A stretch of 64,000 bases of DNA from the NCBI RefSeq assembly GCF_054482595.1, contig NZ_CM137008.1. The stretch is one strand, 5' to 3'. This document shows positions 60,902 to 60,938 of this stretch, piece by piece. Position numbers and translations under genes: made by a program. Each line of letters begins with the position of its first letter. The stretch's first letter is position 1. The notes beneath the pieces are model-generated. The model worked only from the letters and a program-made list of their open reading frames with translations. It ran no database searches and was not told where the DNA came from.

Positions 60902-60938
60902 CTGGGTGTATATACAGTTATGCTGTGAGTATATACAG
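60902..60938. promoter_or_regulatory. Tandem LexA boxes in the lexA promoter
   Basis: Minus-strand CTGTATATACTCACAG and CTGTATATACACCCAG (plus-strand 60923-60938 and 60902-60917). Confidence 0.85.

Follow-up and report, generated by a model that had tools for sequence, protein, structure and literature searches.

Two tandem boxes in front of lexA and a single box shared by the divergent genes uvrA and ssb are the native LexA operators of the stretch of E. coli chromosome analysed here, a reading to which we assign a probability of about 97%. This stretch, called the window below, is 64,000 nucleotides long. The three operators are real, functional by the literature and already known, and they form the ordinary E. 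coli arrangement. An earlier note on this DNA had placed tandem boxes at lexA (60902-60938) and one box at ssb/uvrA (43958-43977), and all three can be read directly in the sequence there. The note had also called them useful as internal anchors only, and not novel. Both judgements stand: these are known wild-type operators with the base-for-base K-12 sequence, and they matter only as an anchor, confirming the window as the E. coli lexA-dinF ... uvrA/ssb region with wild-type SOS regulatory sites.

Genes and regulatory regions

Compared as a whole with K-12 MG1655, the window is an E. coli chromosome segment in reverse orientation, about 98.3% identical. The dgkA-lexA intergenic region and the 254-bp uvrA-ssb intergenic region are each 100% identical to K-12 MG1655, and each of the two regulatory regions is present in 5425 of 5426 complete E. 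coli genomes. The features at the lexA locus are as follows.

58887-60266, minus strand: dinF coding sequence (MATE transporter); ORF list, NCBIfam NF007690 DinF equivalog (909.9 bits), K-12 annotation
60285-60893, minus strand: lexA coding sequence (202 aa); ORF list, NCBIfam TIGR00498 LexA equivalog (289.5 bits), RefSeq annotation
60900-60919, minus strand: proximal lexA box ("operator I"), core 60902-60917; 20-mer AACTGTATATACACCCAGGG
60920, minus strand: approximate lexA transcription start (+/-1 nt), in the 5-bp spacer between the box cores; back-calculated from PMC9210283
60921-60940, minus strand: distal, promoter-overlapping lexA box ("operator II" of Kozuch et al.), core 60923-60938; 20-mer TGCTGTATATACTCACAGCA in lexA orientation
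60928-60933, minus strand: lexA -10 hexamer TATACT, wholly within the distal box; sole -10 candidate in a relaxed sigma-70 scan
60951-60956, minus strand: lexA -35 hexamer TTCCAA, 17-bp spacer; relaxed sigma-70 scan
61003-61371, minus strand: dgkA; RefSeq annotation
from 61482, plus strand: plsB

At the uvrA/ssb locus the corresponding features are these.

43271-43807, minus strand: ssb coding sequence (178 aa, MASRGVNKV...); ORF list, NCBIfam SSB subfamily model NF006533 (360 bits)
43958-43977: single LexA box common to the divergent uvrA (plus) and ssb (minus), core 43960-43975; 20-mer TACTGTATATTCATTCAGGT
43965-43970 and 43988-43993, plus strand: candidate uvrA promoter, -35 TATTCA, 17-bp spacer, -10 CATAAT; relaxed scan, 8 of 12 matches
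44061-46883, plus strand: uvrA coding sequence (940 aa); ORF list, NCBIfam UvrA equivalogs

The gene names agree with the RefSeq annotation of identical E. coli records; for dgkA, an NCBIfam search at an E-value cutoff of 1e-10 gave no match. The LexA encoded in the window matches solved E. coli LexA structures over its full length (E about 1e-129), including 3JSO, 3JSP and 3K3R, which we take to be LexA-DNA complexes. The identification of the boxes as the LexA operators of lexA-dinF and uvrA/ssb is thus borne out by NCBIfam models, RefSeq annotation, the 100% K-12-identical intergenic regions and the experimental literature. The K-12 RefSeq annotation contains no protein-binding features and therefore provides no independent annotation of the three boxes. 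The earlier note went too far in taking the boxes to confirm gene orientation as well: near-palindromes do not give orientation, and it is the open reading frames that do.

The gene dinF lies directly downstream of lexA on the same strand, with 18 nt between the lexA stop and the start of the 459-aa form of dinF and no intervening operator or terminator. The dinF start itself is ambiguous. The longest open reading frame and the K-12 annotation give 459 aa from a start at 60266, but the alignment to the NCBIfam DinF equivalog profile (441 positions) begins at residue 1 of a 441-aa form with its start at 60212.

Sequence of the boxes and the literal consensus

The K-12 lexA operators reportedly go back to Brent and Ptashne (1981) and Little et al. 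(1981), and the heterology indices of the two boxes are presumably about 6.3 and 8.3. Compared with the K-12 operators as described more recently (Kozuch et al. 2020, PMC7440846; Lewis et al. 2021, PMC9210283), the dgkA-lexA region of the window is the same base for base: the box centers are again 21 bp apart, the boxes overlap -10 and +1 in the same way, and the downstream box has the same Dcm site. There is no difference, even though the host strain is not K-12. The same holds for the K-12 uvrA/ssb box, which is credited to Brandsma et al. 1983 where it is cited in PMC9505508: the 254-bp region, the distances to both start codons and the overlap with the uvrA -35 are all shared, with no difference.

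All three boxes are imperfect palindromes of 20 bp in which positions 3-5 are CTG, positions 16-18 are CAG and the center is A/T-rich. The distal lexA core (60923-60938) reads CTGTGAGTATATACAG on the plus strand and CTGTATATACTCACAG in lexA orientation, and is an exact CTGT-N8-ACAG. The proximal lexA core (60902-60917) reads CTGGGTGTATATACAG on the plus strand and CTGTATATACACCCAG in lexA orientation; it is CTGT-N8-CCAG, one mismatch away from CTGT-N8-ACAG. The uvrA/ssb core, CTGT-N8-TCAG, likewise has one mismatch. The earlier description of all the operators as textbook CTGT-N8-ACAG and intact was therefore overstated, since it fits one box of the three (60923-60938) and fails for the proximal lexA box and the uvrA/ssb box. 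The CCAG and TCAG half-sites are natural wild-type sequences.

When set against the gammaproteobacterial LexA-box consensus TACTGTATATATATACAGTA (CTGT-N8-ACAG), the three boxes keep the CTG-N10-CAG triplets and the A/T-rich center, have 5, 6 and 5 mismatches to the 20-mer by direct count, and in two cases depart at position 15, with C or T in place of A. The literal CTGT-N8-ACAG is not a true defining feature of gammaproteobacterial SOS boxes, because only 10 of the 18 accepted E. coli boxes in Table 4 of PMC3009722 contain it and the other 8 depart from it. In Salmonella, a consensus-based FIMO scan missed the second lexA box (PMC8072944), which echoes the finding that the proximal E. coli lexA box is not textbook.

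Promoter geometry at lexA

The two lexA box cores are separated by 5 bases, and their centers are 21 bp apart. A strict sigma-70 consensus scan found no promoter at either the lexA or the uvrA/ssb locus, in the case of lexA because the -35 hexamer TTCCAA fits only 3 of 6 consensus positions; the promoter assignments at both loci thus draw on the relaxed scan together with the literature. The position of TATACT fits the -10 and the start site shown in Fig. 1 of PMC9210283 and Fig. 2 of PMC7440846. In the former paper, two Dcm target cytosines are numbered +17 and +45 relative to the lexA start. These cytosines are window positions 60904 and 60876, both of which give +1 = 60920, and we infer that the exact lexA start lies at about this position. 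The distal box therefore lies over the -10 and the proximal box spans about +2 to +21, abutting the Shine-Dalgarno G-run.

The departure of the proximal half-site from consensus creates a Dcm site with flanking Cs, CCCAGGG, at 60900-60906 within the box. LexA binding to the proximal box interferes with methylation by Dcm at this site, and regulation is unaltered by methylation; in E. coli this site is methylated only in stationary phase, with no regulatory effect (PMC9210283).

Within the species, the 52-bp lexA operator segment has at least 99% identity in 5336 of 5425 E. coli records.

The shared uvrA/ssb box

Relative to the uvrA ATG, the uvrA/ssb box ends 84 nt upstream; relative to the ssb ATG, it occupies the stretch 151-170 nt upstream, which agrees with the "-170 nt" given in PMC9505508. 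The candidate uvrA -35, TATTCA, sits within the box, in agreement with the overlap described in the same paper. Near the ssb start codon the relaxed scan found better sigma-70 candidates, TACAAT (43860-43855) and TACACT (43846-43841), and these fit the published scheme of two constitutive promoters and one distal promoter controlled by LexA (PMC9505508).

A single box for both genes, with a heterology index of 6.98, is also what PMC9505508 describes, and the Salmonella ssb/uvrA box is likewise common to both genes, with an index of 6.99 (PMC8072944). Whether this box controls ssb was disputed for decades. RT-qPCR in lexA3 and SOS-constitutive strains showed LexA-dependent induction of both ssb and uvrA, and no LexA control of ssb was detectable in undisturbed growth (PMC9505508). 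In 4445 E. coli records the identity of the 54-bp uvrA/ssb segment is at least 99%, and in the other 981 it is 95-99%; one variant that we inspected has a SNP at 43978, one base beyond the 20-mer.

Pattern counts and weight-matrix statistics

A LexA motif scan had been proposed as the check on these boxes. When the literal pattern is used in such a scan, it does not tell the boxes from chance: the window contains one exact CTGT-N8-ACAG (the distal lexA box) versus 0.56 expected, with at least one in 38 of 100 shuffles, and 20 matches with one mismatch versus 17.0 expected. The bare CTG-N10-CAG core occurs 29 times. We therefore rejected the literal scan as a test for LexA boxes. The CTGT-N8-ACAG shorthand is at once too strict, missing two of the three sites here and 8 of the 18 accepted boxes, and too unspecific, with counts that equal chance in 64 kb; scanning for LexA boxes needs a weight matrix and promoter position, and conservation was needed here as well.

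A 20-bp symmetrised weight matrix was built from 17 SOS boxes in Table 4 of PMC3009722, leaving out the lexA entry, so that none of the three tested sites was in the training set. Among the roughly 64,000 positions of the window, this matrix ranks the distal lexA box first (19.7 bits), the proximal lexA box second (18.6 bits) and the uvrA/ssb box third (17.2 bits), followed after a 5-bit gap by sites of 12.0 and 11.2 bits. The scores of the three boxes, 17.2-19.7 bits, fall within the training range of 13.3-29.8 bits. The maximum score averaged 10.9 bits over 300 first-order Markov-simulated 64-kb windows, and a site of at least 17 bits occurred in only 7 of them. Chance does not account for three sites with such scores that all fall on promoters of known SOS genes.

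Three weaker matches were considered and rejected. The fourth-best match, TATTGTTTTTCACGACAGTA at 30212-30231 (12.0 bits), lies in the nrfA leader, about 45-65 nt upstream of nrfA (minus strand), where it adjoins a hairpin, and it is identical in K-12 (4287701-4287720); its score is at chance level. The fifth-best, at 21082-21101 (11.2 bits), is a false positive formed by the end of the fdhF intrinsic terminator stem and its T-run (CAGCCTCCTTTCGGAGGCTGTTTTTTT). Finally, the weak LexA-like sequence AACTGCACAATAAACCAGAG at 60962-60981, upstream of the lexA -35, was rejected as a third lexA operator, with a score of 5.6 bits and poor conservation across species. It is probably the putative "operator III" of the literature, which was reported to be non-functional (PMC7440846).

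Conservation of the lexA boxes across Enterobacterales

A LexA protein search of genome contigs yielded 80 loci from different Enterobacterales species, 79 of them with a usable upstream region. The 200 nt upstream of each lexA start codon were scanned with the same weight matrix, counting a score of at least 10 bits as a box. Two boxes were found in 74 of the 79 species, typically centered about -37 and -16 relative to the ATG, and the remaining 5 species have one degraded box. In the rest of these same loci, about 418,000 positions, there were only 3 matches of at least 13 bits. Conservation is thus documented across Enterobacterales for the lexA boxes, and for the uvrA/ssb box within E. coli and, from the literature, in Salmonella (PMC8072944).

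Every one of the 74 two-box loci has CTGT-N8-ACAG as its distal core, an invariance consistent with the core serving both as operator and as -10. By comparison, the right half of the proximal box reads CCAG in 48 of these species, ACAG in 25 and TCAG in one. The non-ACAG state of the E. coli proximal box is thus lineage-specific. The forms encountered are ACAG, ACCAG and CCCAG, the latter two of which create a Dcm site; a lineage-specific Dcm site also agrees with Supplementary Fig. S1 as it is described in the text of PMC9210283. Of the 74 two-box species, 48 have CCWGG in the proximal box, counting the ACCAGG form that has no 5'-C flank.

In 62 species the centers of the two lexA boxes are 21 bp apart; 4 species have a distance of 20 bp and 8 a distance of 19 bp. 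The 20-bp spacing was seen in Erwinia (three loci), and the 19-bp spacing in Pantoea, Tatumella, Mixta and Rosenbergiella (eight loci).

In a column-wise footprint of the 79 species, high conservation is confined to the -35, the two boxes and the Shine-Dalgarno run. GGTTCC at the lexA -35 is 90-100% conserved; conservation is poor upstream of -60 and in the "operator III" segment (60962-60981).

Chance and promoter signals as explanations

Could the three boxes have no function and have arisen by chance, as a short and degenerate palindrome may in A/T-rich intergenic DNA? The pattern counts would allow it, since neither the exact nor the one-mismatch form of CTGT-N8-ACAG is enriched and CTG-N10-CAG is found at 29 places. 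The full-length weight matrix, however, sets the three sites apart from all others, and they fall exactly on promoter elements of known SOS genes. Furthermore, the lexA boxes, unlike their diverged flanks, are conserved in 74 of 79 Enterobacterales species, and there is published functional evidence for the sites (PMC9210283, PMC9505508, PMC7440846). Chance is already refuted by the conservation and the weight-matrix statistics, and we give it practically no weight.

A more limited objection is that the conservation at lexA reflects nothing but the -10 and the signals of the 5' untranslated region and ribosome-binding site, so that one box or neither is a working operator. The -10 hexamer lies within the distal core and could alone explain the invariance there, but the CTG/CAG triplets beyond the hexamer are also about 90-100% conserved. 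Similarly, the proximal box abuts a conserved G-rich Shine-Dalgarno stretch, yet its palindromic half-sites are kept while the center and position 15 vary. One degraded box in 5 of 79 species, and a single-operator promoter (cons06) that behaves like wild type (PMC7440846), might be taken to mean that one box is dispensable. Plasmid data from the same study nevertheless assign each lexA operator an equal share in repression, with complete loss only when both are mutated. We therefore regard an explanation by promoter signals as very improbable, and retain the interpretation of all three boxes as native LexA operators.

Proposed regulation and the two lexA operators

LexA would be expected to bind and repress at all three sites, judging from the literature on the identical K-12 sequences (PMC7440846, PMC9210283, PMC9505508). 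The direct evidence in K-12 includes a gel-shift assay of LexA on the proximal lexA box (PMC9210283) and the abolition of LexA repression of PlexA when both lexA operators are mutated (PMC7440846). A paper on LexA binding kinetics (PMC5999292) has a text without uvrA and no usable values for the lexA operators.

In the proposed mechanism, one LexA dimer would occupy each imperfect palindrome of about 20 bp, with its invariant CTG...CAG and A/T-rich center, and would thereby block RNA polymerase. At lexA, a dimer on the distal box would occlude the -10 and one on the proximal box would cover about +2 to +21. Given boxes in these positions, LexA should repress its own synthesis (negative autoregulation) along with that of the co-transcribed dinF. 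The latter gene is probably transcribed from the lexA promoter: no matrix match falls in 58887-60285 (dinF) among the 25 best-scoring positions of the window (at least 2.9 bits), and the damage-inducibility of dinF is therefore most simply explained by co-transcription. The uvrA/ssb box overlaps the uvrA -35 and, of the three ssb promoters, would govern only the most upstream. Such an arrangement would make uvrA moderately SOS-inducible and leave ssb constitutively high from its two proximal promoters. Upon DNA damage, RecA-ssDNA filaments stimulate the self-cleavage of LexA; the boxes would then empty and transcription would rise.

As to why lexA has two operators, no cooperativity between LexA dimers was detected by Kozuch et al. 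(PMC7440846). The range of spacings in our survey, 19-21 bp, would mildly disfavor strict phase-dependent cooperativity, in line with that result, since the 19- and 20-bp variants would be unexpected if the tandem arrangement served cooperativity that depends on helical phase. Perhaps the spacing and half-site pattern fits independent or redundant operators better, or a second, undiscovered factor acting at one box, but we consider this unlikely. If true, it would be a small refinement of a known system and not a new system.

Other features of the window

Over positions 11512-64000 the window is collinear with K-12, with an identity of about 98.3%. It lacks the K-12 als operon and rpiB (about 7.1 kb); a cluster of about 9.4 kb takes their place at 2152-11511, flanked by yjdP and yjcS. 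According to the annotation of the identical strain XH990, this cluster encodes a hybrid sensor kinase, a response regulator and a sugar ABC transporter, together with a D-lyxose/D-mannose-family isomerase, a ketose-bisphosphate aldolase and a carbohydrate kinase.

Between yjcO and gltP (21837-22098) there is a 113-bp tandem repeat, in 2.3 copies, with REP-type elements that match Rfam naRNA4; K-12 appears to have more copies. A second naRNA4 match (Rfam) was found at 32557-32628. Two further Rfam matches, at 19317-19371 and 39866-40006, are the fdhF selenocysteine insertion element (SECIS_2) and the small RNA sraL (ryjA) adjoining soxR, both of which are expected for this chromosomal region.
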